From a virus (lineage: Duplodnaviria; Heunggongvirae; Uroviricota; Caudoviricetes), in the IMG/VR virus record IMGVR_UViG_2563366996_000005, positions 1 through 21,434 of that record: a stretch of DNA of 21,434 bases; one strand, given 5' to 3'. Numbering within the stretch: position 1 is the first letter of the stretch; the number at the start of each line of letters is the position of its first letter. Both the position numbers and the translations under genes were made by a program. A model generated the notes under the pieces. The model was not told where the DNA came from, did no database searches, and saw nothing but the letters and a program-made list of their open reading frames with translations. Shown here one piece after another: positions 36 to 17,097 of the stretch.

Positions 36-40
36 CCGTT

Positions 41-457: not shown

Positions 458-555
458 TTTTTATAAGCGTCGACGGCCTCACGAAACATCTTTTCATCGC
501 CAATAAAAGTGGCGATAGTGAATTTAGTCTGGATAGCCATAAGTGTTTGATCCAT
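412..555 (-). CDS. kil: Kil (host cell-division inhibitor), 47 aa
   Basis: The C-terminal 47 residues of track ORF 412..681 ([47 protein letters not shown]) match recalled lambda Kil. The ATG at 553-555 (minus) was located by hand. Confidence 0.85.
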
Positions 556-688
556 TTTTTGGGACTCCTGGCTGATTAAGTATGTCGATAAGGCGTTTCC
601 ATCCGTCACGTAATTTACGGGTGATTCGTTCAAGTAAAGATTCGGAAGGGCAGCCAGCAACAGGCCACCCTGCAATGGCATATTGCAT
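524..688 (-). CDS. cIII: CIII (protects CII from FtsH), 54 aa; overlaps the kil start by 32 nt as in lambda
   Basis: Manual translation of the minus strand from ATG at 686-688 gives [54 protein letters not shown], with an AAGGAG RBS upstream. It is in a different frame from track ORF 412..681, so the track does not list it. Confidence 0.85.
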   Translation of the reverse strand: MQYAIAGWPVAGCPSESLLERITRKLRDGWKRLIDILNQPGVPKNGSNTYGYPD

Positions 689-712
689 GGTGTGCTCCTT
701 ATTTATACATAA

Positions 713-737
713 CGAAAAACGCCTCGAGTGAAGCGTT
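713..737 (-). terminator. Candidate intrinsic terminator between ea10 and cIII (minus strand)
   Basis: Minus-strand hairpin AACGC-(10 nt loop)-GCGTT followed by TTTTTCGTT. Confidence 0.4.
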
Positions 738-760
738 ATTGGTATGCGGTAACGCCGCGC

Positions 761-1129
761 TCAGGCGGCTTTGATAGTCATATCATCTGAATCAAATATT
801 CCTGATGTATCGATATCGGTAATTCTTATTCCTTCGCTACCATCCATTGGAGGCCATCCTTCCTGACCATTTCCATCATTCCAGTCGAACTCACACACAA
901 CACCATATGCATTTAAGTCGCTTGAAATTGCTATAAGCAGAGCATGTTGCGCCAGCATGATTAATACAGCATTTAATACAGAGCCGTGTTTATTGAGTCG
1001 GTATTCAGAGTCTGACCAGAAATTATTAATCTGGTGAAGTTTTTCCTCTGTCATTACGTCATGGTCGATTTCAATTTCTATTGATGCTTTCCAGTCGTAA
1101 TCAATGATGTATTTTTTGATGTTTGACAT
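761..1129 (-). CDS. ea10: Ea10 (lambda early protein of the pL operon), 122 aa
   Basis: Track ORF; translation matches recalled lambda Ea10, and it sits next to cIII as in lambda. Confidence 0.8.
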   Translation of the reverse strand: MSNIKKYIIDYDWKASIEIEIDHDVMTEEKLHQINNFWSDSEYRLNKHGSVLNAVLIMLAQHALLIAISSDLNAYGVVCEFDWNDGNGQEGWPPMDGSEGIRITDIDTSGIFDSDDMTIKAA

Positions 1130-1147
1130 CTATTCATATCCTCACAG

Positions 1148-1175
1148 ATAAAAAATCGCCCTCACATTGGAGGGC
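1148..1175 (-). terminator. Intrinsic terminator upstream of ea10 (minus strand)
   Basis: Minus-strand hairpin GCCCTC-CAATGT-GAGGGC (1158-1175) followed immediately by GATTTTTTAT. Confidence 0.55.
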
Positions 1176-1389
1176 AAAGAAGATTTCCAATAATCAGAAC
1201 AAGTCGGCTCCTGTTTAGTTACGAGCGACATTGCTCAGTGTATTCACTCGTTGGAATGAATACACAGTGCAGTGTTTATTAGTATGCCTGTCTTTTAACC
1301 ACATCAGGCTCGGTGGTTCTCGTGTACCCCTACAGCGAGAAATCGGATAAACTCTATTCACCCCTACAGAGAGCAAAAGAGAAACGCCG

Positions 1390-1971
1390 ATGAACAACTC
1401 ATGGTGGCAGGAACTAATGCATTTTTTCCTGCAAGGAATGACACTTAAACAGTTGATTCATATGCTAATCATCCTGATCATATTGATTATTGTTATGCCT
1501 GTAAGCGTAAAAGAATGGATAAACCTGCATAATCCAGAAATCCTTCCTCATTACTGGATGTATTACATCCTGTTGTTTTGCGTTAGCTATGTGCTTAACG
1601 GCGTTGTTAATTCCGCTTATCACGCTGTGACTGTAAGAATTGAGATATTCGCTGCTCAGAAGCGCAAATCTAAAGAAGAGAAATACGTGCAAGATTTGTT
1701 TGATTCGTTAACTCTTGGAGAAAGAGCGTATTTGGCATTCGCTGTAGCCGCTAATAACCAGCTAAAGACAGAAAAGGGAAGCCCTGAAGCAATCTCATTG
1801 CTCGAAAAAGGGCTTCTTATTCGGGTACCTTCTGCTACTGGATATCCTGAAATCGACCGTTTTGTTATCCCGGAACGCTATAGAAATGAGTGCTACATTA
1901 GGTTTGCTGGGAAGAAAGACAGTCTTATGGATGAACTTATCGCTCAGGATAAGCATGGCAAAAACAAGTAA
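1390..1971 (+). CDS. sieB: SieB-like superinfection exclusion protein, 193 aa, hydrophobic N-terminal segments
   Basis: Track ORF on the opposite strand to the pL genes, between ea10 and N where lambda and P22 carry sieB. Size is right (~192 aa) and the N-terminal region is very hydrophobic (LIHMLIILIILIIVMPV, YYILLFCVSYVLNGVV). Identity to lambda SieB is recalled, not verified. Confidence 0.6.
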   Translation: MNNSWWQELMHFFLQGMTLKQLIHMLIILIILIIVMPVSVKEWINLHNPEILPHYWMYYILLFCVSYVLNGVVNSAYHAVTVRIEIFAAQKRKSKEEKYVQDLFDSLTLGERAYLAFAVAANNQLKTEKGSPEAISLLEKGLLIRVPSATGYPEIDRFVIPERYRNECYIRFAGKKDSLMDELIAQDKHGKNK

Positions 1972-1987
1972 TTAGCAAATGAATTTA

Positions 1988-2296
1988 TCATCTCGCCGTC
2001 AGTTGTTTTGATTTCCGGTAGCCTGCCGCGTAAATAGCTACGTTTGGCAGGCAAACACTTCCACTGCATTCATCTACTTTCTTGCAGCGAAGGCTTCCGA
2101 GTGATATTGCTTTTTCAGAAAGGCTTAACCGCTTTCTCGGGTCTTCCTGAACAGGTTCCTCACTGTCTGTGCCGAAGATCGAATCGATGATGTTGCAGAT
2201 GGAATCACGCTCGATGGCCAGCTTTCTGCGCCGCTCATGACGGCGAGTTTTGGCATTTCCTGCAAATGTTGATTTTCCGTACACGATTACCGTCAT
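1988..2296 (-). CDS. N: N antiterminator, P22 type (gene 24-like), 102 aa
   Basis: Contains the P22 N arginine-rich motif GNAKTRRHERRRKLAIER. The likely start is the internal Met of track ORF 1988..2380 (MTVIVYGK..., ATG at 2294-2296) with a GAGGA RBS. It lies directly downstream of a P22-type boxB. Confidence 0.85.
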   Translation of the reverse strand: MTVIVYGKSTFAGNAKTRRHERRRKLAIERDSICNIIDSIFGTDSEEPVQEDPRKRLSLSEKAISLGSLRCKKVDECSGSVCLPNVAIYAAGYRKSKQLTAR

Positions 2297-2414
2297 GATG
2301 TTTTCCTCATGTGAAATGGCTTTGGTGGTGATGCGCCAGATGCTGATCTTCTGGTTGCTGTCGTTACTGCTGCAATTCACATCACCCCAAACCCATCTCG
2401 TTTGGTATCTGTTC

Positions 2415-2448
2415 GCGCTTTGTCAGCGCATCATCGAAGTTAAAGAGC
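2415..2448 (-). promoter_or_regulatory. nutL: P22-type boxB (2415-2429) plus boxA-like element (2439-2448)
   Basis: Minus-strand sequence GCTCTTTAAC...GCGCTGACAAAGCGC. The 15-nt GCGCUGACAAAGCGC hairpin is the P22 boxB-left sequence as I recall it from the N-peptide/boxB literature. Confidence 0.75.
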
Positions 2449-2704
2449 CTGCCAATCTGTTCCGTTTGGCTGCCAGCGTCCTGCTGATGGCGATTATAAT
2501 GAACCAATAGTTCGATATTATCAAGAACTATAAGTACGAATTGTTTGTGGTTCATTAACTTAATGAGATATGTTTTTGATATGTAAAGGAATTTATTTTT
2601 GTAAAGATTGAAGATTGGTCAGTAGGAGAGAAAGAATTGTTTGCTGGCGTGTTAGTTCGTGGGTTAGCACATGTGCGGATGTTAAATAAGGTAGACGATC
2701 GTGA

Positions 2705-2732
2705 GGAAAAGAAAAACCGGCGCTGAGGCCGG
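2705..2732 (-). terminator. Intrinsic terminator just downstream of the 299-aa gene (minus strand)
   Basis: Minus-strand hairpin CCGGC-CTCAGC-GCCGG (2717-2732) followed by TTTTTCTTTT, 7 nt past the stop codon at 2739-2741. Confidence 0.55.
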
Positions 2733-2738
2733 GTATAA

Positions 2739-3638
2739 TTATTTGATTATTTCTTTTATAAAGACTTCTTTCGGTTGGTATTTTTTATCTGATGATTTGA
2801 GCTGGTACGTTATTGTTATATCAGCACGTACAGAAAATTTACCTGCAAAATCTGATGGGTTTACGTTGGGGCCAAGAACCATATTTACTCTTCGATCTAT
2901 TAATCCAGGGATAACAGCAGCCCAACCTTTCTCTGGATTGTCGAGGTCTAATGCACGGATTTCAACATCAACATCAAAATGATCCTGAGTATATGACTCT
3001 GGTGTGAAGACAACTTCAGTTGGGGCTTTTTTAATGGTTTCAGCGGGAATGGTCACTGTACCACCCCCTGTACCTATGACCATCGTAGATCCTTCGTCTG
3101 CCCTAGCTGGGGCAAGCGTCTTAATGGAACTTTTGGCAAGAGTCTTCTTATTGGTTACCGTGCTTTCTATGATTGCTTGAAGACGGTCAGGTGAAATATT
3201 AGCCTCACCGGCACCAATATTGATGATTGTATTGTTATTTGCTTCAAAGTGGGAGGTGTTGCTTGGAGCCATAGCCTTAGTTGCTAGAACTAAGCCATAT
3301 CCAACCAGACCAATAACAACAGCACCAACGAGAGCGTTTCTCATTTTCCCATTTCCGATCTTTGCATGAGCGCCAGCAAGAAACTTGTCCATTTCTTCTT
3401 GGCTACCAAAGAGGAGTTTAATAACAATATCTTCATAAAGGCTTCCTGCTTCTAATCGCGCAACATGCACCGATATATCAAGGATATTAGCCCCTGTCAG
3501 TTCCTGCAAAACACCTTCTGATTGTTTTGCGATGGCCTCCCACCCTTGAAGGGAGGTAATCACATCTTTGATGCTTACAGGTTCTTTAGTTGAATAATAT
3601 ATGTTTTCGGTAAAGGTTAAAGATAATTCTTGGGACAT
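2739..3638 (-). CDS. Hypothetical 299-aa single-pass membrane protein in the rexAB-equivalent slot (between oL/pL and the repressor, same strand as the repressor)
   Basis: Track ORF. One strongly hydrophobic helix near residues 100-125 (MRNALVGAVVIGLVGYGLVLATKAMA) separates a ~100-aa N-terminal domain from a ~175-aa C-terminal domain. I recognise no family. AT-rich compared with the flanking lambda-like genes. Confidence 0.8.
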   Translation of the reverse strand: MSQELSLTFTENIYYSTKEPVSIKDVITSLQGWEAIAKQSEGVLQELTGANILDISVHVARLEAGSLYEDIVIKLLFGSQEEMDKFLAGAHAKIGNGKMRNALVGAVVIGLVGYGLVLATKAMAPSNTSHFEANNNTIINIGAGEANISPDRLQAIIESTVTNKKTLAKSSIKTLAPARADEGSTMVIGTGGGTVTIPAETIKKAPTEVVFTPESYTQDHFDVDVEIRALDLDNPEKGWAAVIPGLIDRRVNMVLGPNVNPSDFAGKFSVRADITITYQLKSSDKKYQPKEVFIKEIIK

Positions 3639-3767
3639 CCGAGCCCTCGCTGTTTCTTTCGATTTGCTGTGTTAAGCTAATATTTTAATATCCATGTTTC
3701 TGTTTGCTTGCAGTGTGTTTCTCACCACCATCCAAACGTACTGGTTACTAGCTATGTGATGATGAAG

Positions 3768-4475
3768 TCATGAACTTTTCAGCCATTCCCTGGCCTCGAT
3801 GTCATCTAGGTGGCGAGATTGCTTCAGAATACCAGCTACATACTCCACCTTTGCTACTTGATGATAAGGCAACGTTATTGGCCTGTGGTCTTGGTTGATG
3901 CTTGTAAATTGGTATTCTCCGTCTCTGTCATAGCCAAGAACCTTGATCATGTTGTGCCCTTCAATGGTTCTGACAAACACCTCATCACCTGGGAATACTT
4001 TGGTGTTAGGCTCAATGAGTACATATTCTCCTGATTTTATTCTGGGCCACATGCTGTCTCCTTTTACACGAAGACCAAAGGCATCTGGATCATCGCTATA
4101 AATCTTGAGCCACCCATCGCGCTCTTCGGTCATCTCGATGGCACCATCAACACCAAGAATTGCCTCACCAACCACGCGCACTAACCCTTTTTTTAATTTG
4201 CCAACAATTGAAAAAGTATCTTCATCATTCGCTCCATTTAACGAAGTGCCGTGCTGAAGCCAAACAACATCAACGTTTAGAAATTTCGCAAGCGCATTCA
4301 TTTTTTCCTGGCGTGGTAAAGACTCAGCATTAAACCATTTGCTAACGCCTTTGGACGAAAGAGAAAGGGCACGGGCTATGGCCATTCCCCTACCATGTTC
4401 ATCAAGACCAGCTTCTTTACAGGCTTGCGCTAGCCGCTGGGCGAATTCTTTGCGCACTTTTTCATTCTGAACCAT
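3768..4475 (-). CDS. cI: CI-like prophage repressor: N-terminal HTH domain plus C-terminal LexA/S24-type autocleavage domain, 235 aa
   Basis: Track ORF. The C-terminal domain carries the S24 serine motif GDSMWP and a downstream Lys. It is divergent from cro across a short operator region. Not lambda, 434 or P22 repressor by recall. Confidence 0.85.
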   Translation of the reverse strand: MVQNEKVRKEFAQRLAQACKEAGLDEHGRGMAIARALSLSSKGVSKWFNAESLPRQEKMNALAKFLNVDVVWLQHGTSLNGANDEDTFSIVGKLKKGLVRVVGEAILGVDGAIEMTEERDGWLKIYSDDPDAFGLRVKGDSMWPRIKSGEYVLIEPNTKVFPGDEVFVRTIEGHNMIKVLGYDRDGEYQFTSINQDHRPITLPYHQVAKVEYVAGILKQSRHLDDIEAREWLKSS

Positions 4476-4553
4476 GAGTACGATACTAAAGCACTTGCAA
4501 AAACTTTCAGTTCAACCATAATGCGTACTGAAAGTACGAAAAAGGACATTCCT
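4476..4553. promoter_or_regulatory. Right operator / pRM-pR region between repressor and cro
   Basis: A 78-bp divergent intergenic region containing the perfect palindrome CGTACTgaaAGTACG (about 4523-4537) and a second AGTACGA copy next to the repressor start. One more AGTACGA copy lies in the presumed oL region near 2543. Confidence 0.5.
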
Positions 4554-4781
4554 ATGCAAAATCTTGATGAGCCGATTAAAGGTGTCGGCATCCCTGAAGT
4601 TGCGAAGGCTTGTGGAGTTAGCGAAAGGGCTGTCTATAAGTGGCTCAAAAACGGCTTCCTCCCTAAGACTGAGTTTTTTGGGAAAACGAAATACGCATCA
4701 AAAATCGAAGAGATTTCTGGTGGCAAATATCAAGCAAGCGAAATGCTTGAAATAAGCAAAAAGAACCTTCTGGCAGCATAA
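4554..4781 (+). CDS. cro: Cro-like HTH regulator, ~75 aa from the internal Met
   Basis: Track ORF 4521..4781. The internal Met (MQNLDEPIKG...) has an AAGGA RBS, while the upstream ATG does not. Contains an HTH-like segment (IPEVAKACGVSERAVYKWLKNG). Coordinates are taken from the ORF track. Confidence 0.7.
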   Translation: MQNLDEPIKGVGIPEVAKACGVSERAVYKWLKNGFLPKTEFFGKTKYASKIEEISGGKYQASEMLEISKKNLLAA

Positions 4782-4788
4782 GTAACAC

Positions 4789-4823
4789 CGCTCTTTATCA
4801 ATCTGCACCGCCGACAACGCGGT
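4789..4823 (+). promoter_or_regulatory. nutR: boxA CGCTCTTTA (4789-4797) plus P22-type boxB ACCGCCGACAACGCGGT (4807-4823)
   Basis: Canonical boxA followed by a hairpin that matches the P22 boxB-right sequence as I recall it. It sits between cro and cII, where nutR and tR1 belong. Confidence 0.7.
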
Positions 4824-4887
4824 AACTAATTAAGAACTCATCGAAAGATGCGTATTAGTGATTATTTACCTATGGAAATAGTAAGAA

Positions 4888-5187
4888 ATGGAACAAACAA
4901 ATTACAGCAAACTATCACAGCGCGACGTTGATCGCGCAGAAACAGATTTACTTATCAACCTGTCAACGCTTACTCAGCGCGGTCTGGCAAAGATGATTGG
5001 CTGTCATGAATCGAAGATAAGCAGAACAGACTGGAGGTTTATAGCTTCGGTCTTGTGTGCTTTTGGCATGGCATCAGACATCAGTCCGATTAGCAGAGCT
5101 TTTAAGTATGCGCTTGATGAAATCACCAATAAAAAACGCCCGGTGTGCAAGACCGAGCGTTCTGAACAAATCCAGATGGAGTTCTGA
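4888..5187 (+). CDS. cII: CII-like transcriptional activator, 99 aa
   Basis: Track ORF. The C-terminus TNKKRPVCKTERSEQIQMEF closely matches the lambda CII C-terminus (TNKKRPAATERSEQIQMEF). The N-terminal half is divergent, consistent with a different immunity type. Confidence 0.8.
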   Translation: MEQTNYSKLSQRDVDRAETDLLINLSTLTQRGLAKMIGCHESKISRTDWRFIASVLCAFGMASDISPISRAFKYALDEITNKKRPVCKTERSEQIQMEF

Positions 5188-5219
5188 GGTCATTACTGGA
5201 TCTATCAACAGGAGTCATT

Positions 5220-6119
5220 ATGACAAATACAGCAAAAATACTCAACTTCGGCAGAGGTAACTTTGCCGGACAGGAGCGTAATGTGGCAGATCTCGATGAT
5301 GGTTACGCCAGACTATCAAATATGCTGCTTGAGGCTTATTCGGGCGCAGATCTGACCAAGCGACAGTTTAAAGTGCTGCTTGCCATTCTGCGTAAAACCT
5401 ATGGGTGGAATAAACCAATGGACAGAATCACCGATTCTCAACTTAGCGAGATTACAAAGTTACCTGTCAAACGGTGCAATGAAGCCAAGTTAGAACTCGT
5501 CAGAATGAATATTATCAAGCAGCAAGGCGGCATGTTTGGACCAAACAAAAACATCTCAGAATGGTGCATCCCTCAAAACGAGGGAAAATCCCCTAAAACG
5601 AGGGATAAAACATCCCTCAAATTGGGGGATTGCTATCCCTCAAAACAGGGGGACACAAAAGACACTATTACAAAAGAAAAAAGAAAAGATTATTCGTCCG
5701 AGAATTCTGGCGAATCCTCTGACCAGCCAGAAAACGATCTTTCTGTGGTTAAACCGGATGCTGCAATTCAGAGCGGCAGTAAGTGGGGAACAGCAGAAGA
5801 CCTGACCGCCGCAGAGTGGATGTTTGACATGGTGAAGACTATCGCACCATCAGCCAGAAAACCGAATTTTGCTGGGTGGGCTAACGATATCCGCCTGATG
5901 CGTGAACGTGACGGACGTAACCACCGCGACATGTGCGTGCTGTTCCGCTGGGCCTGCCAGGACAACTTCTGGTCCGGTAACGTGCTGAGTCCGGCCAAAC
6001 TCCGCGACAAGTGGACCCAGCTCGAAATCAACCGGAACAAGCAACAGGCTGGCGTGACAGTCGGCAAACCAAAACTCGACCTGACAAACACTGACTGGAT
6101 TTACGGGGTGGATCTATGA
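5220..6119 (+). CDS. O: Replication initiator O, 299 aa
   Basis: Track ORF; translation matches recalled lambda O and the gene contains the ori iterons. Confidence 0.9.
   Translation: MTNTAKILNFGRGNFAGQERNVADLDDGYARLSNMLLEAYSGADLTKRQFKVLLAILRKTYGWNKPMDRITDSQLSEITKLPVKRCNEAKLELVRMNIIKQQGGMFGPNKNISEWCIPQNEGKSPKTRDKTSLKLGDCYPSKQGDTKDTITKEKRKDYSSENSGESSDQPENDLSVVKPDAAIQSGSKWGTAEDLTAAEWMFDMVKTIAPSARKPNFAGWANDIRLMRERDGRNHRDMCVLFRWACQDNFWSGNVLSPAKLRDKWTQLEINRNKQQAGVTVGKPKLDLTNTDWIYGVDL
5568..5700. repeat. ori-lambda: four ~19-bp iterons (ATCCCTCAAAACGAGGGA-like) followed by an AT-rich region
   Basis: Four direct repeats are visible: tccctcaaaacgaggga, tcccctaaaacgaggga, atccctcaaattggggga, atccctcaaaacaggggga. 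They are followed by an A-rich stretch (caaaagaaaaaagaaaag), all inside O. Confidence 0.85.
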
Positions 6120-6817
6120 AAAACATCGCCGCACAGATGGTTAACTTTGACCGTGAGCAGATGCGTCGGATCGCCAACAACATGCCGGAACAGTACGACG
6201 AAAAGCCACAGGTACAGCAGGTAGCGCAGATCATCAACGGTGTGTTCAGCCAGTTACTGGCAACTTTCCCGGCGAGCCTGGCTAACCGTGACCAGAACGA
6301 ACTGAACGAAATCCGCCGCCAGTGGGTTCTGGCTTTCCGGGAAAACGGGATCACCACAATGGAACAGGTTAACGCAGGAATGCGCGTAGCCCGTCGGCAG
6401 AATCGACCATTCCTGCCATCCCCCGGACAGTTTGTAGCCTGGTGCCGGGAAGAAGCATCCGTTATTGCCGGACTACCAAACACCAGCGAGCTGGTTGATA
6501 TGGTTTACGAGTATTGCCGGAAGCGTGGCCTGTATCCGGATGCAGAGTCTTATCCGTGGAAATCAAACGCGCACTACTGGCTGGTTACCAACCTGTATCA
6601 GAACATGCGGGCCAATGCGCTTACTGATGCGGAATTACGGCGCAAGGCTGCCGATGAACTGACTTGTATGACCGCGCGAATTAACCGTGGTGAGGCGATA
6701 CCTGAACCAGTAAAACAACTTCCTGTCATGGGCGGTAGACCTCTAAATCGTGCACAGGCTCTGGCGAAGATCGCAGAAATCAAAGCGAAGTTCGGACTGA
6801 AAGGAGCAACTGTATGA
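6116..6817 (+). CDS. P: Replication protein P (DnaB helicase loader), 233 aa
   Basis: Track ORF; translation matches recalled lambda P. ATGA start/stop overlap with O. Confidence 0.9.
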   Translation: MKNIAAQMVNFDREQMRRIANNMPEQYDEKPQVQQVAQIINGVFSQLLATFPASLANRDQNELNEIRRQWVLAFRENGITTMEQVNAGMRVARRQNRPFLPSPGQFVAWCREEASVIAGLPNTSELVDMVYEYCRKRGLYPDAESYPWKSNAHYWLVTNLYQNMRANALTDAELRRKAADELTCMTARINRGEAIPEPVKQLPVMGGRPLNRAQALAKIAEIKAKFGLKGATV

Positions 6818-7116
6818 CGGGCAAAGAGGCAATTATTCATTACCTGGGGACGCATAAGAGCTTCTGTGCGCAGGACGTTGCTGCGGTAACAGGCGCAACA
6901 GTAACCAGTATAAATCAGGCTGCGGCTAAAATGGCACGGGCAGGAATCTTGGTCGTTGATGGTAAGGTCTGGCGAACGGTGTATTACCGGTTCGCTACCA
7001 GGGAAGAACGGGAAGGAAAGGTGAGCACGAATCTGATTTTCAAGGAGTGTCGCCAGAGTGCCGCGATGAAACGAGTGTTGGCAGTGTATGGAGATATGAA
7101 CTTAAACTTGCTGTGA
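6814..7116 (+). CDS. ren: Ren, 100 aa, with a C-terminus that diverges from lambda Ren
   Basis: Track ORF. MTGKEAIIHYLGTH...FKECRQSAAMKRVL matches recalled lambda Ren. The last ~10 residues differ (…AVYGDMNLNLL), marking a mosaic junction. Confidence 0.8.
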   Translation: MTGKEAIIHYLGTHKSFCAQDVAAVTGATVTSINQAAAKMARAGILVVDGKVWRTVYYRFATREEREGKVSTNLIFKECRQSAAMKRVLAVYGDMNLNLL

Positions 7117-7364
7117 CGGTTTTCATCGGTAACACACCATGTAATCTAGCAGTCAGCTTAGAAATAGGAGCGGCAGTTAAAGATTTTTCAGTTAGTAGAA
7201 AATTACTGTTATTGCAGGGATCTAATCACCGGAGAGTCGTTCCATTTGTCTTATGATTACCTGAAGTCCGTTAGTTCGTTGGTAATCACCGTTTTTGTTA
7301 GAGAAGTAAGCATCGCTGACAAAATATTCTCAACGATGCCTGCTTTATTGCTACTACAAATTAA

Positions 7365-8761
7365 TTAAATTGCATCTGCAAACTCTGGGGTTTTTCGCTC
7401 AGGTATAATTGATGAGTTGCTGTTGTCACTTTTTTTATTTTCATGATTACGAATAGCCAATGACTCATTAAAGTCTTTTGCGACTGCTGTCTCAATAAAT
7501 TCAATTTCTGAATCAGAGTGTTTTTTAACAGCTTCTTTGATCTCATCCAGAGTAACATAGAAAAACTCTTTTCTACGATTTACAAGATTGACTCTCTTTT
7601 TATCGAAGACATCATGTAGTTTTTTTTCTAATGATGGAGCGTCCTCCGAATAAATCATGGCATGTACATCAAAAATAAAAGGAACAGATGCATCACCGAG
7701 CTCATTTACACGGTCTTGCGGATCAAGACGTCGTGTCATGCCTATTTTATAAACATTCTCCCCAAAAGAACCTATGTTCGAAATAATATAAACATGACCT
7801 TGTTTGGTTTGTTGTGCCATGGATAATGCTCTTTGATGCTTTGATTCAGCCTGCGACAAACTCTGTTCTAGTTCGGCAATGCGATTTTCGAGGCGCTGCT
7901 TCATGTCACCAGTAACTTTTTCCATTTCCTTTCTTGCAGCTTCAATTGCTTTTTTATAACGGCGCTCTTCTGCCTCTGCGTCTTGCATGGCCTTTTCTAT
8001 TTCTCGTTGTGCACGCTCCTCCTCTCTCATTTGTGCCCTTATTTCTGCCTGTTCTTCTTTTTCTTTCTGTTTTTGCTCACGATATTCATGGGTAAGCCAC
8101 AATTCCTCAAGTTTTTTATTGAGGTATTTAGTGTTTATATATATGTGATTTTGCTCGTTTAGTTTATTTATGGCCTCAAATGCCTTTGTGATGCGTTCTT
8201 CCATTTTAGTGATGTTTTTCCACGTGCAATTGCTAATTGCAGCATCACATTCATTATTAAATGCTCTAGTAGTTAGCCTGATATTTCTGTCTGTCATTTT
8301 TTTACCCTCTGCTCGAGAGCCTTCAACAGTCCATTGGGTTGTACAATATACTGCGCCAGAGTGGGTTTTATCCCGCAGCATTAATTTCTGTTCATCCCTG
8401 ATGGATTTTATTTTGTTTTTAAATTGCTCTGAATCTTCAAAATTAAAATGAGGTTCGTAAAATCCTAGTTCGGCTAGCTCAACATCTTCTGAATAAATAG
8501 AAATTTGCCTTACTAGTTTATCATATATTTCTTTCTTCTCTTTATAAGTTCTTCTTAGCTCTTGGATTTGTTTATTGATACCATCCATTTTTTCAATGGT
8601 GTTTGTTAGTTCATTATTGGCATTTTCTTTTACTTTTAGGGATTCTTCTTTTATTATGGAGCATTCTTGCTCTGTTTTCTCAATAAGCTTCTTACATTCT
8701 TCTTCTACATTAAAATAATCTGCAAAGCGAGATTTGTATTCTTCATTTTTTTGATTGCTAT
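7365..8761 (-). pseudogene. 3' portion of an IS1-split gene: coiled-coil region plus C-terminal T5orf172/GIY-YIG-like domain (longest ATG-initiated remnant ORF 7365..8588, 407 aa)
   Basis: Track ORF 7365..8588. Its frame stays open upstream for another 57 sense codons with no start codon until it enters IS1 at 8762. The C-terminal motif GHVYIISNIGSFGENVYKIGMTRRLDPQDRVNELG...PFIFDVHAMIY...LEKKLHDVF...RKEFFYV is T5orf172/GIY-YIG-like by recall. The central region is a long charged coiled coil. Confidence 0.75.
8753..8761. repeat. IS1 target-site duplication, left copy (GATTGCTAT)
   Basis: This 9-bp sequence directly abuts the IS1 end at 8762 and is identical to 9530-9538. Confidence 0.9.
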
Positions 8762-8776
8762 GGTAATGACTCCAAC

Positions 8777-9280
8777 TTATTGATAGTGTTTTATGTTCAG
8801 ATAATGCCCGATGACTTTGTCATGCAGCTCCACCGATTTTGAGAACGACAGCGACTTCCGTCCCAGCCGTGCCAGGTGCTGCCTCAGATTCAGGTTATGC
8901 CGCTCAATTCGCTGCGTATATCGCTTGCTGATTACGTGCAGCTTTCCCTTCAGGCGGGATTCATACAGCGGCCAGCCATCCGTCATCCATATCACCACGT
9001 CAAAGGGTGACAGCAGGCTCATAAGACGCCCCAGCGTCGCCATAGTGCGTTCACCGAATACGTGCGCAACAACCGTCTTCCGGAGCCTGTCATACGCGTA
9101 AAACAGCCAGCGCTGGCGCGATTTAGCCCCGACGTATCCCCACTGTTCGTCCATTTCCGCGCAGACGATGACGTCACTGCCCGGCTGTATGCGCGAGGTT
9201 ACCGACTGCGGCCTGAGTTTTTTAAATGGCGGAAAATCGTGTTGAGGCCAACGCCCATAATGCGGGCGGTTGCCCGGCAT
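8777..9280 (-). CDS. insB: IS1 InsB (transposase catalytic part, made as InsAB' by a -1 frameshift)
   Basis: Track ORF; translation matches recalled IS1 InsB. Confidence 0.9.
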
Positions 9281-9474
9281 CCAACGCCATTCATGGCCAT
9301 ATCAATGATTTTCTGGTGCGTACCGGGTTGAGAAGCGGTGTAAGTGAACTGCAGTTGCCATGTTTTACGGCAGTGAGAGCAGAGATAGCGCTGATGTCCG
9401 GCGGTGCTTTTGCCGTTACGCACCACCCCGTCAGTAGCTGAACAGGAGGGACAGCTGATAGAAACAGAAGCCAC
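9199..9474 (-). CDS. insA: IS1 InsA (transposition repressor / N-terminal part of the transposase)
   Basis: Track ORF; translation [40 protein letters not shown]... matches recalled IS1 InsA. Confidence 0.9.
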
Positions 9475-9529
9475 TGGAGCACCTCAAAAACACCATCATA
9501 CACTAAATCAGTAAGTTGGCAGCATCACC

Positions 9530-9538
9530 GATTGCTAT
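9530..9538. repeat. IS1 target-site duplication, right copy (GATTGCTAT)
   Basis: Identical 9-mer to 8753-8761, directly abutting the other IS1 end. Confidence 0.9.
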
Positions 9539-9644
9539 CACTTAATTCTAATTGTATTTTTTTGATGCGTTTGATTGCAGCTATATAAAGAACAAGAACA
9601 ACCAATAAAAATATGATTGCAAGTAATAGAGGAGTTTGAGTCAT
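9530..9644 (-). pseudogene. 5' portion of the IS1-split gene: start codon plus N-terminal transmembrane anchor
   Basis: Manual minus-strand translation from ATG at 9642-9644 (AAGGAA RBS 8 nt upstream, in-frame stop 5 codons upstream) gives MTQTPLLLAIIFLLVVLVLYIAAIKRIKKIQLELS... Joined across IS1 with one TSD copy removed, it runs in frame into the 3' portion. Confidence 0.7.
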
Positions 9645-9952
9645 TCGTGCTATTCCTTACGGACAATTTAAGACGTTTTGTATTAAATCCTGTTCAATGT
9701 GTATGCGGGTGATTGCTACCGCTTACAATCTTCATAATTATCAGTTAGATAGACTCGCTAGTAAATAATTTCATTTTTTGCAATATTCTTATTGAATATT
9801 TCAATTTATGAAATGAACTCTTTATCCTTTCAAGGTGAAAGGTTTCTTCTTCGGAAATATTTGCTCTCGTGTGACGTATAAAGACCTTTGATTTTCAAAA
9901 ATCAGTAGGGAATAATATAGTTACTGTCGGCCTGAACACCCGGTGGTGGGGT

Positions 9953-10050
9953 TGCGCTAAACGGGGACGTTTATGCGCACACACAATCCAAACTCTCATC
10001 TCCATTCACAGATGCAGAAATGCACCTACGATTTTTTACATTCGGTGTTT
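9953..10050 (+). repeat. Direct repeat R1 (~98 bp, ~90% identical to R2)
   Basis: tgcgctaaacggggacgtttatgcgcacacacaatccaaactctcatctccattcacagatgcagaaatgcacctacgattttttacattcggtgttt aligns base-for-base with 11887-11984, with about 10 mismatches. Confidence 0.85.
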
Positions 10051-10279
10051 TACTTCGACAGCCAGAATTGGGAGTCTCTATTCGTCTGGCGGCTAAAGGT
10101 GATATGGAAATCGTTATGTTTTGGCCTGAGGTAGTTGTAACTGTTGTAGCAGCTATGGATGTGATCATCATGGTGTCCATTTACTGGGGTTGACGACATG
10201 ATTTATCCGGCGCTATATTCTGTGCGTTGCCGCAAAATCGGCACACGGGATTGGCGTCCCGGGATACTACTCAACGCAT

Positions 10280-10300
10280 ACCGCGTTAAGCGGTTTTTTT
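10280..10300 (+). terminator. Candidate intrinsic terminator (short stem)
   Basis: ACCGC-GTTAA-GCGGT followed by seven T. Confidence 0.4.
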
Positions 10301-10456
10301 GTGCGCTAAGCACGGCTATGCCCAAATTATGGTGGGCTGTGTGAGGGCTTCTTCGGAAGCGCCGGGTTTGAGTAGCCGGTTACGCCAACCTTACACAGTT
10401 CACCACCAGTCGATTGGCGTCGTTGGTGGTGATGGTTAACCTGATGAGGTGATACT

Positions 10457-11065
10457 ATGACTACTCAATTAGCATTCCACAAAACGACGTTTACCCCGAT
10501 TTGCCACAATAACAGAATTTGGCTTACTGCCACTGAAGTTGGTTTAGCACTGGAATATGCGGACGATAAAGCAGTTCAGCGCATTTACTCTCGGCACTCA
10601 GATGAATTCACAGATATGATGACAAGGGTGGTCAAAGTGACCACCCCTCGTGGAATGCAGGAGTCTCGAGTATTTAGCCTTCGCGGAGCCCATTTGATCG
10701 CCATGTTTGCTCGTACTCCTGTGGCCAAAGAATTCCGCCGCTGGGTTCTGGATATTCTCGATCGAGAAGTTCAACAATCCCCAATCACAAAACAATTCAC
10801 TGATAACGAACTTTGCACACTCGCCTGGTTATGGCGAGCAAGTGATACGATGTTAACCGCCTGCCAGAACGTTACGCCCCTTCTTCAGGTCGCAGAGCAT
10901 CGCGAAGCAGGTAGATTCACTTCAATCGAACAAGAATATCCTCGGATACTCAACAGGGCGCGAGAAATCCTTGCCAGAGAAACGGCGCATGTAAAATTCC
11001 AACCGTGGCAGGATGATAAGTGGAGTCGTGTGTTACCATATTTCCGTCAGAATCTGTTGCAATAA
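10457..11065 (+). CDS. Bro-N domain protein (antirepressor-like / Rha-like regulator), 202 aa
   Basis: Track ORF. The N-terminal ~100 aa has the Bro-N pattern (…FHKTTFTPICHNNRIWLTATEVGLALEY…RVFSLRGAHLIAMFARTPVAKEFRRWVLDIL) by recall. A terminator follows. Confidence 0.7.
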   Translation: MTTQLAFHKTTFTPICHNNRIWLTATEVGLALEYADDKAVQRIYSRHSDEFTDMMTRVVKVTTPRGMQESRVFSLRGAHLIAMFARTPVAKEFRRWVLDILDREVQQSPITKQFTDNELCTLAWLWRASDTMLTACQNVTPLLQVAEHREAGRFTSIEQEYPRILNRAREILARETAHVKFQPWQDDKWSRVLPYFRQNLLQ

Positions 11066-11085
11066 AGTCACTAGTTAGAAATACT

Positions 11086-11125
11086 GCCAGCATTCTGCGA
11101 TGACGGAAGTGCTGGCATTTTTTTT
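11086..11125 (+). terminator. Intrinsic terminator after the Bro-N gene
   Basis: GCCAGCA-(17 nt loop)-TGCTGGC followed by ATTTTTTTT. Confidence 0.5.
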
Positions 11126-11300
11126 GGTAATGTGCGAGTCCATTTCATAAAATACGGGTACTGGAACTGGACGATATAATCTAAAAGATACCATTATCAG
11201 TAGCATTAAAATCGCTATGTGCCGATACGGATATAAATTATATTGATTGTTCACATACCTTATTGGATATTACTGAGGGGTGTTTATATAAGGTGTAACG

Positions 11301-11810
11301 ATGATGTGGAACTTTGACAGTGCCGACTTAAGTGCAATAGCAGCAGGCATTTCTGCGTTTGGCACATTAGCCGCAGCGGGGTCGGCGCTTGCAAGTTGGT
11401 GCACGTCAAAAAAAGCGCTGCAGCTACAAAATAGAGTTTACCTTTATGAGTCTTTAAAGGCTTGCGCTGAGAGAGCCAATTCATCAGCTAAAGATAAGCG
11501 CGGATCTGAATGGAGCGTTAATGATGCAGCGGATATCATCAGGTGCCTAGTACGGGCGATGGAGCTCATCAAGCAGGATAGCCAGCAGAAAGAAGGTAAT
11601 CAGGCATTAATGTTGAAACAGTACTTTGTTAATCTGCTAATAATGGAACTGTACGAGGAAGTTCATAACGGTGATGCGGCTGATTCTGTTTTTAAAAGTA
11701 CGGAACCTACACAAGTACTTGATAACTTATGGAGCAAATGGCAGGAGGCTATAGCTTTTTTTGATATTTGGAATTACCCAGTTGCGACTGAGGAAGACTT
11801 GGCAGACTAA
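11301..11810 (+). CDS. Hypothetical 169-aa protein with an N-terminal hydrophobic segment
   Basis: Track ORF. It is preceded by ~170 bp of AT-rich sequence and a GAGGGG RBS-like element. The N-terminus LSAIAAGISAFGTLAAAGSALASW is hydrophobic. I recognise no family. Confidence 0.65.
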   Translation: MMWNFDSADLSAIAAGISAFGTLAAAGSALASWCTSKKALQLQNRVYLYESLKACAERANSSAKDKRGSEWSVNDAADIIRCLVRAMELIKQDSQQKEGNQALMLKQYFVNLLIMELYEEVHNGDAADSVFKSTEPTQVLDNLWSKWQEAIAFFDIWNYPVATEEDLAD

Positions 11811-11886
11811 TTTTCAGCACATTTGATTTCCAATAATCAACCAGCCATAATCATGCCATTGGAGCTTGAACAACTCCGGTGACTTC

Positions 11887-11984
11887 TGCGCTAAACGGGG
11901 ACGTTTATGCGCACATACAATCCAAACTCTCTTCTCCCTTCACAGATGCAGAGATGCACCTGCGATTTTTTGCATCCAGCGTTT
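11887..11984 (+). repeat. Direct repeat R2 (~98 bp), immediately upstream of ninB
   Basis: See R1. Each copy begins a short ORF (R1 9973..10134, R2 11907..12008) with a conserved N-terminus MRT(H/Y)NPNS(H/L)L(H/P)SQMQ(K/R)CT(Y/C)DFLH. Confidence 0.85.
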
Positions 11985-12004
11985 GACCTCTGCGGAGGTG
12001 AAGC

Positions 12005-12460
12005 GTGAACCTCCCACAAGACGGCATCAAATTGCATCGTGGTAACTTCACCGCTATCGGCCAGCAGATCCAGCCTTATCTGGAGGAAGGCAAATGCTTT
12101 CGCATGGTGCTTAAACCGTGGCGTGAGAAACGCAGTCTTTCCCAGAATGCACTCAGCCACATGTGGTACAGCGAAATCAGTGAATACCTCATCAGCAGGG
12201 GTAAAACGTTCGCCACTCCAGCTTGGGTAAAAGATGCTCTCAAACACACATATCTCGGTTATGAAACCAAAGACCTGGTTGATGTCGTAACCGGTGAGAT
12301 CACCACTATCCAGTCGTTACGCCATACCTCCGATCTTGATACCGGAGAGATGTATATCTTCCTGTGTAAGGTTGAAGCCTGGGCGGTGAATATTGGCTGC
12401 CACCTGACTATTCCGCAGAGCTGCGAGTTCCAGCTGCTGCGCGACAAGCAGGAGGCGTAA
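12005..12460 (+). CDS. ninB: NinB-like recombination protein (lambda Orf family), 151 aa, GTG start
   Basis: Track ORF. Family assigned by recall from similarity to lambda NinB (for example around [16 protein letters not shown]) and by its position at the start of the nin region. Confidence 0.65.
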
Positions 12461-12630
12461 TGGCTACACCGCTTATTCGTGTCATGAACGGACACATCTA
12501 CAGAGTACCAAATCGTCGTAAGCGTAAACCTGAGCTGAAGCCATCCGAAATACCAACACTGCTCGGATATACCGCCAGCTTGGTTGATAAAAAATGGTTG
12601 CGACTGGCAGCAAGGAGGAATCATGGCTGA
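12460..12630 (+). CDS. Small nin-region protein (NinD-like), 56 aa
   Basis: Manual translation from ATG 12460 (TAATG overlap with the ninB stop): [56 protein letters not shown]. Below the ORF-track size cutoff. NinD assignment is by recall. Confidence 0.55.
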   Translation: MATPLIRVMNGHIYRVPNRRKRKPELKPSEIPTLLGYTASLVDKKWLRLAARRNHG

Positions 12631-12913
12631 TTTGAGAAAAGCAGCGCGTGGTCGGGAATGCCAGGTAAGAATCCCTGGCGTATGTAATGGCAATTCTGAG
12701 ACGTCTGTACTGGCACATATCCGGCTGGCTGGATTGTGCGGTACCGGTATCAAACCGCCAGACCTGATTGCCACCATTGCATGTTCTGCCTGCCACGACG
12801 AAATCGACCGCCGCACGCATTTTGTTGACGCTGGATATGCAAAAGAATGCGCGCTGGAAGGTATGGCGAGAACGCAGGTTATCTGGCTGAAAGAGAGGGT
12901 AATTAAGGCGTGA
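12623..12913 (+). CDS. ybcO: YbcO-like DUF1364 protein (Cys-rich, putative nuclease), 96 aa from the internal Met
   Basis: Track ORF 12584..12913. [23 protein letters not shown]... matches recalled E. coli DLP12 YbcO. The ATG at 12623 has an AGGAGGAA RBS. Confidence 0.7.
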
Positions 12914-13272
12914 ATACTTACCACATCACACTACCCTGGCCTCCGAGCAATAATCGCTATTACCGCCATAATCGCGGGCGCACGCACGTCAGCGCAGAGG
13001 GGCAGGCATACCGCGATAACGTCGCCCGAATCATTAAAAACGCAATGCTGGATATCGGCCTGGCGATGCCTGTGAAAATCCGCATTGAGTGCCACATGCC
13101 GGATCGCCGTCGCCGTGACCTGGATAATCTGCAAAAAGCCGCTTTTGACGCACTCACCAAAGCAGGTTTCTGGCTGGATGATGCTCAGGTCGTTGATTAC
13201 CGCGTTGTGAAGATGCCTGTTACCAAAGGTGGGAGGCTGGAACTGACCATCACCGAAATGGGGAATGAATGA
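12910..13272 (+). CDS. rusA: RusA Holliday-junction resolvase, 120 aa
   Basis: Track ORF; translation matches recalled RusA ([22 protein letters not shown]...). Confidence 0.9.
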
Positions 13273-13409
13273 TGTTTGAGTTTAATATGGCAGAACTTCT
13301 TCGCCACCGCTGGGGGCGTCTGCGCTTATATCGTTTCCCCGGCTCTGTTTTGACCGATTACCGAATACTGAAGAATTACGCCAAAACACTGACAGGAGCA
13401 GGAGTATGA
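13269..13409 (+). CDS. Small protein (YlcG-like), 46 aa
   Basis: Manual translation [50 protein letters not shown]-coupled to the rusA stop. Below the track cutoff. Confidence 0.5.
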
Positions 13410-13494
13410 AGTCAGAGATAACAATCAACTAATACTGTTTTGCTGATTTTTGCTTGTAATTGGCGTTCTGGTCTGAGTTTTGTGGAGTAAGTTG

Positions 13495-13878
13495 ATGCGT
13501 GATATTCAGATGGTTCTTGAGCGTTGGGGAGCGTGGGCGGCTAATAATCATGAAGATGTGACCTGGTCGTCCATTGCCGCCGGTTTTAAGGGATTAATTC
13601 CTTCAAAAGTAAAATCTCGCCCGCAATGTTGTGACGATGACGCGATGATCATTTGCGGGTGCATGGCCCGTCTGAAAAAGAACAACAGCGATTTGCACGA
13701 TTTATTAGTAGATTATTATGTAGTCGGTATGACATTCATGTCACTGGCAGGTAAGCATTGCTGCTCTGATGGTTATATCGGGAAAAGGTTACAAAAGGCT
13801 GAGGGCATAATTGAAGGGATGTTAATGGCATTAGATATCCGGTTAGAGATGGATATCGTTGTTAATAACTCTAATTAA
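13495..13878 (+). CDS. Q: Q-like late antiterminator (short form, QuuD-like), 127 aa
   Basis: Track ORF 13480..13878. The internal ATG at 13495 has a GGAG RBS. Cys-rich ([20 protein letters not shown]). It sits in the Q position upstream of the lysis genes. DLP12 QuuD similarity is recalled. Confidence 0.75.
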
Positions 13879-13899
13879 TATGCCAATTGTTTACTAAAA

Positions 13900-13929
13900 A
13901 TTATTAAAAATGGGGCGTTGAGACGCCCC
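13900..13929 (-). terminator. Intrinsic terminator downstream of the porin gene (minus strand)
   Basis: Minus-strand hairpin GGGGCG-TCTCAA-CGCCCC followed by ATTTTTAATAATTTTT. Confidence 0.5.
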
Positions 13930-14018
13930 CAAAAATAAAGGGTAATATATAACAGAAGGTTTATATAGTTAGAAGCAAGGTTGTGCTTCTAAAGGAAGTG
14001 GCTTGAGGGAGCCACTTA

Positions 14019-14057
14019 TATGTTGGGGAGGCAACGCCTCCCGCAACATATCTTTTT
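14019..14057 (+). terminator. Plus-strand intrinsic terminator ~140 nt downstream of Q (candidate tR'-like terminator of a short late-promoter RNA)
   Basis: Hairpin GGGAGGC-AAC-GCCTCCC with flanking tatgttg/caacata extension, followed by TCTTTTT. A possible promoter TTGAGA-N19-TAATAT lies at ~13918-13948. Confidence 0.45.
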
Positions 14058-14067
14058 CGTAATCAGA

Positions 14068-15150
14068 TTAGAACTGGTAAACCAGACCTACAGCAACGAT
14101 GTCATCAGTATCAATACCAGCTGTTTTGGTAAACTTACTATCGTCAATTAAGTTGATTTTGTAATCAACAAAAGTGGACATGTTTTTATTAAAGTAGTAA
14201 GTAGCACCGACATCGACATACTTGACTAAGTCTCGGTCACCATGAACACCAAGGTCTTTACCTTTTGACTGAAGGTAAGCAACAGATGGGCGCAGACCGA
14301 AGTCAAACTGATATTGTGCTACTGCTTCAAAGTTTTGTGCTTTGTTTGCAATATGGTTATTACCAAAAACGGTCATATTCTGAGTTTCAGAATATGTGGT
14401 AGCCAGATAGATATTGTTCGCATCATATTTCAGGCCTGCAGCCCATACTTCCGCATTTTTGCCGGAGGCATTGAATTTGCTCTTACCATAGGCGACCTGA
14501 CCGTCAGTGCGATCTGATTTAGCATAGGTTGCACCCACGCCGAATCCTTCATACTCATAAGTAGTGGAGAAACCGAAACCATCACCATTGGCTTCAGTTA
14601 CGTCAGTGCGGTCATTTTTACCCTGATACTGAGCAGCAAAGTTCAGGCCATCGACCAGACCAAAGAAGTCGTTGTTACGATAAGTTGCAACACCAGTAGT
14701 GCGACCAGTCATGAACACATCTGTTTGGGTCCAGGTATCACCACCGAATTCTGGCAGGACGTCAGTCCACGCACCGATGTCGTATGCTACACCGTAGTTA
14801 CGGCCGTAATCGATTGAGCCGTAATCACCAAATTTCAGGCCTGCAAATGCAAGACGGGTTTTGTCTTTGGAAGAACCTTGAGATTCAGCGCGGTTGCCTT
14901 TGAATTCATATTCCCACTGACCGAAACCAGTCAGTTGATCGTTGATTTGGGTTTCACCTTTGAAGCCAAGACGGGCATAAGTAGTATCACCATCATCTGC
15001 ATCATTAGAGGAGAAGTAGTGCTTAGCATTAACTTTCCCGTACAGATCCAGCTTGTTACTGTCTTTATTATAAATTTCAGCTGCCTGAGCAGACATCGCC
15101 ATCAGTACTGATGCAGCTACAGCAGAAATTGCCACTGTTAATTTTTTCAT
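14068..15150 (-). CDS. Outer-membrane general porin (OmpC/OmpF/NmpC/Lc family), 360 aa with signal peptide
   Basis: Track ORF. Signal peptide [23 protein letters not shown] and a C-terminal ...VGLVYQF end typical of 16-strand porins. Gly/Tyr-rich beta-barrel pattern. Opposite strand to the Q and lysis genes. Confidence 0.9.
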
Positions 15151-15578
15151 CGTGAGCCCTTTTTTTTGAACTATTATTAAAAAATGATGTCACTGCGCGA
15201 TAAATATTCATCTAATCAATGTGATTATTTCAAGATGTAAGTTTTGGTTTCTCGTTTAATTTGTGAAGTAGATCTCTATTTTTATCTGAACTTTTTTCTA
15301 TCGAATCCTATTCATGGCTCTTGGCTGAATAAAAATAAATCTATTAGCCAATTTATATTAATGGCTGTTATTTATAAGTGCTCTATAATTTGAAGGTTCA
15401 ATTTAAATTGGCTAAAAATAACGCTGGAAATTATTTGTTGGTTATTTGTTGAGATTTGCTTATGTATTTGTAGTGGTGTTTTCAATACTCGGTAGCATTC
15501 TCGCAAATATCATTTAGTGGTTTACGTACGTAAAAAATTGGTTATGCTGTTAAGAGTGGTTACTTCGTCACACAGCTT

Positions 15579-15611
15579 AAACCCGCCGTCGAGCGGGTTT
15601 TTCCATTTTTT
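15579..15611 (+). terminator. Intrinsic terminator ~110 nt upstream of the holin gene (alternative tR' candidate)
   Basis: AAACCCGC-CGTCGA-GCGGGTTT followed by TTCCATTTTTT. Confidence 0.5.
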
Positions 15612-15723
15612 GAGTCTCGATATTAGCTGATAACCCAATACCTGAGTTATTCACTGACTCCGAGTCTGTTACGTTTCGTAGTATTCCCTCAATTTACACC
15701 CGCTTTGTCTGCGAGGTGGGGTT

Positions 15724-15939
15724 ATGAAATCCATGGATAAGTTAACAACGGGTGTCGCCTATGGCACCTCAGCAGGTAGTGCCGGGTACTGGTTTTTACA
15801 GCTGCTCGATAAAGTCACGCCCTCACAGTGGGCAGCAATAGGTGTGCTGGGTAGCCTGGTATTTGGCCTGCTGACGTACCTGACAAACCTTTATTTCAAG
15901 ATTAAAGAAGATAAGCGCAAGGCTGCGAGAGGTGAATAA
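15724..15939 (+). CDS. S: Class II holin/pinholin, phage 21 S21 type, 71 aa with dual-start motif (M1-K-S-M4)
   Basis: Track ORF. MKSMDK...[13 protein letters not shown]...[35 protein letters not shown] closely matches recalled S21. Two transmembrane segments. Confidence 0.85.
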
Positions 15940-16436
15940 TGCCTCCATCATTACGAAAAGCTGTTGCTGCTGCTATTGGTGGCGGGGCTATTGCTATAGC
16001 ATCTGTGTTAATCACTGGCCCAAGTGGTAACGATGGTCTGGAAGGTGTGAGACATAATCCTTACAAAGACATAGTTGGTGTATGGACTGTATGTTACGGG
16101 CATACAGGAAAAGACATCATTCCCGGTAAAACGTATACCGAAGCAGAGTGCAAAGCCCTCCTGAATAAAGACCTTGCCACTGTCGCCAGACAAATTAACC
16201 GGTACATCAAAGTCGATATACCGGAAACAACGCGCGGCGCTCTTTACTCGTTCGTCTACAACGTGGGTGCTGGCAATTTCAGAACATCGACGCTTCTTCG
16301 CAAAATAAACCAGGGTGATATTAAAGGCGCATGTGATCAGCTACGGCGCTGGACATACGCTGGCGGTAATCAATGGAAAGGACTGATGACTCGCCGTGAG
16401 ATTGAGCGTGAAGTCTGTTTGTGGGGGAAACAATGA
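15939..16436 (+). CDS. R: SAR endolysin (T4-lysozyme-like, R21 type), 165 aa
   Basis: Track ORF. N-terminal signal-anchor-release segment [20 protein letters not shown], then a lysozyme-like catalytic region (E...D...T pattern: [24 protein letters not shown]). Confidence 0.85.
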
Positions 16437-17040: not shown

Positions 17041-17074
17041 GATAAGAGCCAGTCATTACAAATACCAGGATTTA

Positions 17075-17097
17075 GCCTCGCATTCGCGGGGCTTTTT
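17075..17097 (+). terminator. Intrinsic terminator downstream of the lysis cassette
   Basis: GCCTCGC-ATTC-GCGGGGC (one G-U pair) followed by TTTTT. Confidence 0.45.

Follow-up and report, generated by a model that had tools for sequence, protein, structure and literature searches.

Our analysis showed that the window (the whole stretch of 21,434 nucleotides that was analysed) carries a copy of the SNIPE/PD-λ-1 gene whose reading frame is split by an IS1 element. By comparison of sequences, this gene is the already-known SNIPE/PD-λ-1 and not a new defence candidate, an identification that no result contradicts, and the copy in the window is a member of SNIPE by descent, but a pseudogene. The explanation that we favour is a simple and recent transposition of IS1 into codons 36-39, which inactivated the gene; for the identity of the gene and its inactivation by IS1 taken together, we estimate the probability of this explanation at about 0.95. 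The coordinates of the features on which it is based are collected in Table 1.

Table 1. Coordinates of the features of the interrupted SNIPE/PD-λ-1 locus and of the sieB gene in the window
Feature	Position	Strand	Remarks
SieB, superinfection exclusion	1390-1971		Pfam match
SNIPE/PD-λ-1 gene, 3' part (nt 107-1503, codons 36-500)	7365-8761	-	parted from the start codon and the anchor
407-aa remnant ORF, M94 to I500	7365-8588	-	part of the coiled coil, DUF4041, linker and nuclease; anchor absent
C-terminal GIY-YIG-type nuclease domain (T5orf172/MUG113), aa 357-449	7521-7799	-	Pfam
Catalytic Glu414 codon	7626-7628	-	E at position 414
DUF4041 / PF13250 "SNIPE" domain, aa 198-252	8112-8276	-	Pfam, E 1.2e-19
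Target-site duplication GATTGCTAT, copy 1	8753-8761		read directly
IS1, intact, 768 bp	8762-9529	-	transposase oriented like SNIPE; identity to the phage P1 IS1, 99.7%
insB' frame	8777-9280	-	inside IS1
insA	9199-9474	-	inside IS1
A6C frameshift site	9223		inside IS1
Target-site duplication GATTGCTAT, copy 2	9530-9538		single copy at the empty site
SNIPE gene, 5' part (nt 1-115)	9530-9644	-	stop inside IS1; the 39-aa peptide is the TM helix plus 15 residues
Single N-terminal TM helix (membrane anchor), codons 5-24	9573-9632	-	hydropathy; topology experimental for the identical protein
Promoter-like site TTTACT-17-GATAAT, ~90 nt upstream of the SNIPE ATG	9737-9765	-	candidate native promoter; a match in a consensus scan, not proof

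When positions 8762 to 9538 were deleted in silico, the minus strand could be read without interruption from 9644 to 7365, in an ORF of 1503 nt that comprises 500 codons and a stop. An AAGGA Shine-Dalgarno sequence is located at positions 9654-9658, 10 to 14 nt upstream of the ATG at 9644. The initial annotation of this DNA had described an ORF of about 500 aa preceded by a ribosome binding site, and the length was found to be exactly 500 aa, with the start codon and the binding site where they had been placed. The N-terminal TM helix that it had proposed was recovered by Kyte-Doolittle hydropathy as a single peak of 3.37 at residues 6-24, the values being 0.87 or less everywhere else in the repaired protein. 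The proposed C-terminal T5orf172/GIY-YIG-like domain was matched by two Pfam models, T5orf172 (E 6.9e-17, 62.3 bits for a cut-off of 20) and MUG113 (E 7e-19, 68.6 bits for a cut-off of 22.3). DUF4041, which had been singled out together with T5orf172 as a model to search for, was also found, with 70.4 bits for a cut-off of 27, and the three matches are all over the Pfam gathering scores. A sequence search of the solved structures gave coiled-coil noise only (E of 0.08 or worse), and no relevant NCBIfam model was at or above its cut-off. In the Pfam names used by another tool, PF13250 is labelled "SNIPE".

Comparison of the repaired gene with known sequences showed 0/1503 nt differences from the CDS annotated as PD-lambda-1 in Escherichia phage PhiR26_1 (PV340555.1, 9690-11192) and 0/1503 nt differences from WP_000195116.1. 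The PADLOC model for PD-Lambda-1 (PDLC03976) was matched over its full length (E 1.9e-198, residues 1-485 of the 491 in the profile), and PHROG 1847 was matched with an E-value of 7e-196. PD-λ-1 was discovered in E. coli ECOR26, where the gene is 1503 nt long and located on contig QOXL01000020 (Vassallo et al. 2022, Nat Microbiol, PMC9519451), and the domain limits obtained with HHpred in the supplement of that work (DUF4041, 197-252; T5orf172, 357-448; MUG113, 373-449) agree with those computed here. PD-λ-1 has since been renamed SNIPE and its mechanism solved (Saxton et al., Nature 2026, PMC13190303; bioRxiv 10.1101/2025.11.03.685801). The length of 500 aa agrees with the last residue number in the SNIPE paper, and all nine of the residues mutated in it (E223, N250, L253, W257, E264, K305, I308, T319, and E414) are present in the repaired protein. 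The intact copies are named "DUF4041 domain-containing protein" in RefSeq and, lately, "SNIPE associated domain-containing protein". The repaired ORF thus shows the full-length profile match, the N-terminal TM helix, the DUF4041, and the GIY-YIG nuclease with E414 that are found in SNIPE members; what is missing in the window is the uninterrupted frame that links the anchor, DUF4041 and the nuclease, which is ended by IS1 after 38 native codons.

The identical intact protein is constitutively expressed and located in the inner membrane, with its N-terminus in the periplasm and with DUF4041 and the nuclease in the cytoplasm (PMC13190303). It protects against lambda and other siphoviruses, the DNA of which is cleaved during injection, and it associates with the ManYZ mannose permease, through which lambda DNA enters, and with the phage tape-measure protein (PMC13190303). 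Binding to DNA is promoted by DUF4041, which probably also makes contact with the tape-measure protein, and defence is lost with the E414A substitution or with the deletion of DUF4041 (PMC13190303). Membrane anchoring holds the nuclease off the chromosome; SNIPE without its TM helix goes to the nucleoid, where double-strand breaks are made, and is highly toxic through its nuclease, this toxicity being abolished by E414A, and the anchor-less protein was not clonable under its own promoter (PMC13190303). The induction of a resident lambda prophage is not impaired by SNIPE (PMC13190303). The gene had been put forward in the initial annotation as an antiphage or abortive-infection effector encoded by a single gene. 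The first part of this proposal is borne out by the PADLOC match, whereas the second is not, as SNIPE cells survived infection in time-lapse microscopy and growth curves, unlike those with the PD-λ-3 Abi control, and SNIPE is a direct defence (PMC13190303).

The window is a mosaic lambdoid prophage, in which SNIPE is located between ren and the nin/ybcN-rusA block, on the strand opposite to that of the flanking genes. The genes on its left are gam, kil, cIII, sieB, N, a cI-like repressor gene, cro, cII, O, P, and ren, and those on its right are a Bro-N/P22AR anti-repressor-like gene, ybcN, ninE, ybcO, rusA, ylcG, Q, an OmpC-like porin gene, the lysis genes, and the terminase gene. The GC content of the SNIPE gene is 35%, compared with 46% in the window and 54% in IS1. 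In a prophage whose left arm is the same, ren is directly followed by ninB and SNIPE is absent; the slot is thus a variable one, and SNIPE fills it as AT-rich cargo, which is what the gene had been called in the initial annotation. The SNIPE gene was found in 131 of 5,426 complete E. coli genomes (~2%), always on the chromosome. Intact homologs at the same position, which were thought worth looking for in related prophages, do exist: many of the carriers have an intact SNIPE in the slot between ren and the P22AR (Bro-N) gene, and so does one isolated temperate phage. Eight ORFs from other parts of the window were scanned with PADLOC, and no further defence system was detected.

The element that splits the gene has all the features of IS1, i.e. 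its length, the inverted repeats, insA and insB' joined through the A6C frameshift, and a 9-bp duplication. The ends of the element (GGTAATGACTCCAACTTATTGAT and GGTGATGCTGCCAACTTACTGAT) are complementary at 18 of 23 positions and form imperfect terminal inverted repeats. The insA gene is intact (91 codons, with a GTG start at 9474), and a -1 shift at the A6C site leads to the 232-aa InsAB' transposase. The 9-bp direct repeats that bracket IS1 are perfect, both being GATTGCTAT, and they correspond to nt 107-115 of the gene (codons 36-39), directly past the TM helix; the intact IS1 and its flanking repeats had already been recognised in the initial annotation, and all of their coordinates were confirmed. 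An empty site with one GATTGCTAT was found in other E. coli genomes, with 0/1503 nt differences from the repaired gene. Since this uninterrupted, single-copy version is known, the repeat is not there by chance. The remnant carries no further mutation, which argues that the insertion is recent, and the event is a routine knockout of a prophage accessory gene by IS1.

The 39-aa product that is encoded today by the 5' part consists of 38 native residues and an arginine, followed by a stop within the left end of IS1 (translation MTQTPLLLAIIFLLVVLVLYIAAIKRIKKIQLELSDSNR, then stop). The same 39-aa N-terminal product was called on five other contigs, and the identical IS1 junction was found with 0 mismatches in five short contigs of other samples, including the human-gut metagenome ERR1711768 and SRR639999. 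The exact IS1/SNIPE junction was found in none of the 5,426 complete E. coli genomes (0/5,426), it had 0 matches among the species-representative genomes of GTDB, and the SNIPE genes in the phage collection were all intact and without the IS1 junction. IS1 would uncouple the anchor, left on the 39-aa peptide, from the body of the protein formed by DUF4041 and the nuclease, and no full-length SNIPE would be made, which would lead to the loss of defence. Such a loss through IS1 had been proposed in the initial annotation and is what the broken frame predicts.

Several other disruptions of SNIPE were found in E. coli. Two more independent IS1 insertions are located in alleles that are ~98% identical, at nt 573-581 in TB354 (NZ_AP038814) and at nt 683-691 in FELIX_MS724/Evo1 (NZ_CP137705/NZ_CP101915). 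Like the gene in the window, these genes are split by IS1 with 9-bp overlaps and belong to the same kind of prophage; however, the alleles, the insertion sites and the neighbour (an HD-domain gene) are different; they are independent events, outside the lineage of the window. One strain, LP-26-E1-261, has an IS5 inside the SNIPE gene. The 407-aa product was called on 189 contigs, and the 500-aa form on at least 1000. Inspection of eight of the 407-aa loci showed that in six the A7 tract of nt 82-88 is replaced by A6 (two assemblies) or by A8 (four), that one has another insertion of 1 nt, and that one is intact but was called short. Common frameshifting of the 5' end was rejected as more than a minor effect, since only 6 of 108 complete genomes deviate at all from a 91-nt 5' probe while 102 of the 108 are perfect, and part of the deviation is possibly sequencing error. 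Pseudogenisation of SNIPE is thus recurrent, not frequent, and sequencing errors may account for some of the indels in homopolymers.

These disruptions could also be explained, in place of neutral decay, by a loss of SNIPE that is selected or reversible, the gene being costly, or a barrier to useful siphoviral prophages, and being turned off by an IS or by slippage in the A7 tract. SNIPE in E. coli prophages would then be a recurrent target of loss or of ON/OFF switching (by IS1, by IS5 or by ±1 slippage of the A7 tract past the TM helix), each event leaving the M94-I500 ORF, so that tolerance of this ORF or its leaky expression at a low level could matter. If this were true, the anchor-less ORF could be a cost, a latent toxin, or the relief of a barrier to new siphoviral prophages. 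The independent IS1 insertions at the separate sites given above, the strain with IS5 and the length variants of the A7 tract speak for such an explanation, but the rate is modest, with the perfect 5' region of most of the complete genomes and with an uninterrupted gene in most of the 131 carriers. The indels in homopolymers of long-read assemblies may be sequencing errors, as noted, and several of the disrupted loci may be clonal. IS1 prefers AT-rich targets, as the SNIPE gene is, and precise excision of IS1 is rare. Both loss under selection and switching are considered unlikely. There is, moreover, no notable growth cost of SNIPE in the published work (PMC13190303). The selected or switchable loss of SNIPE, together with the tolerance by the cell of a latent, anchor-less nuclease ORF, is the only mildly novel point that is left by the analysis, and the support for it is not strong.

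The initial annotation had also considered that a 407-aa remnant starting at 8588 might still be expressed without its anchor. The ORF is as described, the first in-frame start past IS1 being M94 at 8588, but its expression is improbable. The region upstream of M94 (AACACCATTGAAAAAATG) has no Shine-Dalgarno sequence, and a consensus scan of the minus strand from the insA promoter of IS1 to M94 detected no promoter-like site, including no hybrid promoter at the end of IS1. IS1 insertions are classically strongly polar. Because of the absence of these signals, the polarity of IS1 and the toxicity of anchor-less SNIPE, the remnant is probably silent as judged from its sequence, and it would not be translated to a significant level. 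Read-through across IS1 from the SNIPE or insA promoters is possible, and the toxicity of the M94-I500 fragment would be an extrapolation from the published ΔTM construct.

Expression of the M94-I500 remnant as an anchor-less nuclease with a role of its own, e.g. that of a toxin or of a cytoplasmic defence nuclease, is very unlikely. The remnant ORF is intact and free of mutations, but an undecayed ORF is expected anyway after a recent insertion. DUF4041, the nuclease and their linker are all retained in it, other disruptions leave this 407-aa ORF as well, which was called on the 189 contigs, and read-through transcripts are conceivable since IS1 has the same orientation as SNIPE; against this stand the missing signals and the polarity described above, and the binding to the nucleoid, the double-strand breaks and the high toxicity that were observed for SNIPE without its anchor (PMC13190303). 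An artefact of assembly, by which an IS1 repeat would have been collapsed or misjoined into the locus, is hardly credible even though IS1 is multicopy in E. coli (a half-IS1 probe matches each genome at a median of 10 places) and often confuses short-read assembly, since the two junctions are both there, together with a perfect 9-bp target duplication, the sequence on either side is collinear with that of the empty site, and the left junction was found with 0 mismatches in contigs of independent samples.

With inactivation by a recent IS1 insertion as the preferred explanation, the locus is best labelled as a SNIPE/PD-λ-1 pseudogene (IS1::SNIPE), and the lineage that carries it is predicted to have lost the protection given by SNIPE against lambda-like phages and other siphoviruses. 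Programs that search for defence systems and depend on intact ORFs would miss the system or report it as a fragment.

The repaired gene of the window and the SNIPE/PD-λ-1 of ECOR26 agree in length (500 aa), in their TM-DUF4041-GIY-YIG architecture and in the slot beside ren that they occupy in the prophage. The two differ in that the copy in the window is interrupted by IS1 at codons 36-39 and that the left arm of its prophage (immunity and replication) comes from another lambdoid mosaic. The PADLOC candidate PDC-S57 and the other T5orf172/GIY-YIG defence proteins have only the C-terminal T5orf172-type nuclease in common with SNIPE (E 1.7e-18, aa 354-468), while the TM helix, the coiled coil and DUF4041 are unmatched, and they are therefore not the same system. 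SNIPE has been likened to a prophage-encoded exclusion function in the discussion of the SNIPE paper (PMC13190303). Zorya, Kiwa, and SieB act, like SNIPE, at the inner membrane, at or near the injection of the genome; however, their proteins and mechanisms are unrelated to those of SNIPE, which consists of one polypeptide, itself the nuclease by which the incoming DNA is cut.

The IS1 insertions in the SNIPE alleles of FELIX_MS724 and TB354 (loci L003 and L004) are independent events, and the neighbour of SNIPE in these two prophages is a gene for a 515-aa HD-domain protein, not ren. A different element, IS5, splits the SNIPE gene of strain LP-26-E1-261 (NZ_CM144251.1).

The A7 tract of SNIPE was also found altered among the eight inspected loci at which the 407-aa product is called. 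It was reduced to A6 in two assemblies (L006 and L010) and extended to A8 in four (L007-L009 and L012), and each of these alleles carries a frameshift that leaves the same 407-aa M94 remnant, which lacks the N-terminal TM helix. The A6 and A8 variants could be true slippage or homopolymer sequencing error. The 407-aa product was called on 189 contigs and full-length SNIPE on at least 1000, while the 91-nt 5' probe of the gene showed differences in only 6 of 108 complete genomes.

Features of the window and of two other SNIPE loci
Feature	Location	Strand	Position or evidence
SNIPE locus with IS1, FELIX_MS724	L003 6001-8280		IS1 at gene nt 683-691; 9-bp overlap
SNIPE locus with IS1, TB354	L004 6001-8279		IS1 at gene nt 573-581; 9-bp overlap
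lambda cIII thermoregulator RNA element	window 643-701	-	88.5 bits
sieB superinfection-exclusion gene, intact	window 1390-1971	+	Pfam SieB, E 3e-25
299-aa ORF	window 2739-3638	-	directly downstream of cI-like S24 repressor
cI-like S24 repressor	window 3768-4475
A7 tract of SNIPE	window 9557-9563		gene nt 82-88; just 3' of TM-helix codons
isrK Hfq-binding sRNA	window 10228-10300	+	Rfam, 58.7 bits, above gathering score
C4 antisense RNA	window 10325-10410	+	Rfam, 74.8 bits, above gathering score
Bro-N/P22AR anti-repressor-like gene	window 10457-11065
OmpC/NmpC-like porin gene, full length	window 14068-15150	-	Porin_1, E 2e-151

The prophage of the window is a mosaic of two arms. The left arm, from gam to ren (1-7096), is 99.2% identical to a prophage family in which ninB directly follows ren, whereas the right arm (7100-21434) matches SNIPE-carrying DLP12-like prophages; this combination of arms occurs in no complete E. 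coli genome of the collection (5,426 genomes). The isrK and C4 RNA matches lie in tandem immediately upstream of the anti-repressor-like gene, and the set resembles an anti-repressor module of the P1/P7 type under antisense control, adjoining the SNIPE promoter region.

Since sieB is intact, at least one other exclusion function was kept by the prophage after the loss of SNIPE. The 299-aa ORF had no match in Pfam and PADLOC searches, its sole match being PHROG 4506 (function unknown; E 1e-170), and going by its position alone, which in lambda is held by rexAB, it may be a cargo or exclusion gene expressed during lysogeny. The porin gene, further prophage cargo that could change phage receptor availability, is encoded on the opposite strand and separates Q from the lysis cassette, an arrangement shared with DLP12.
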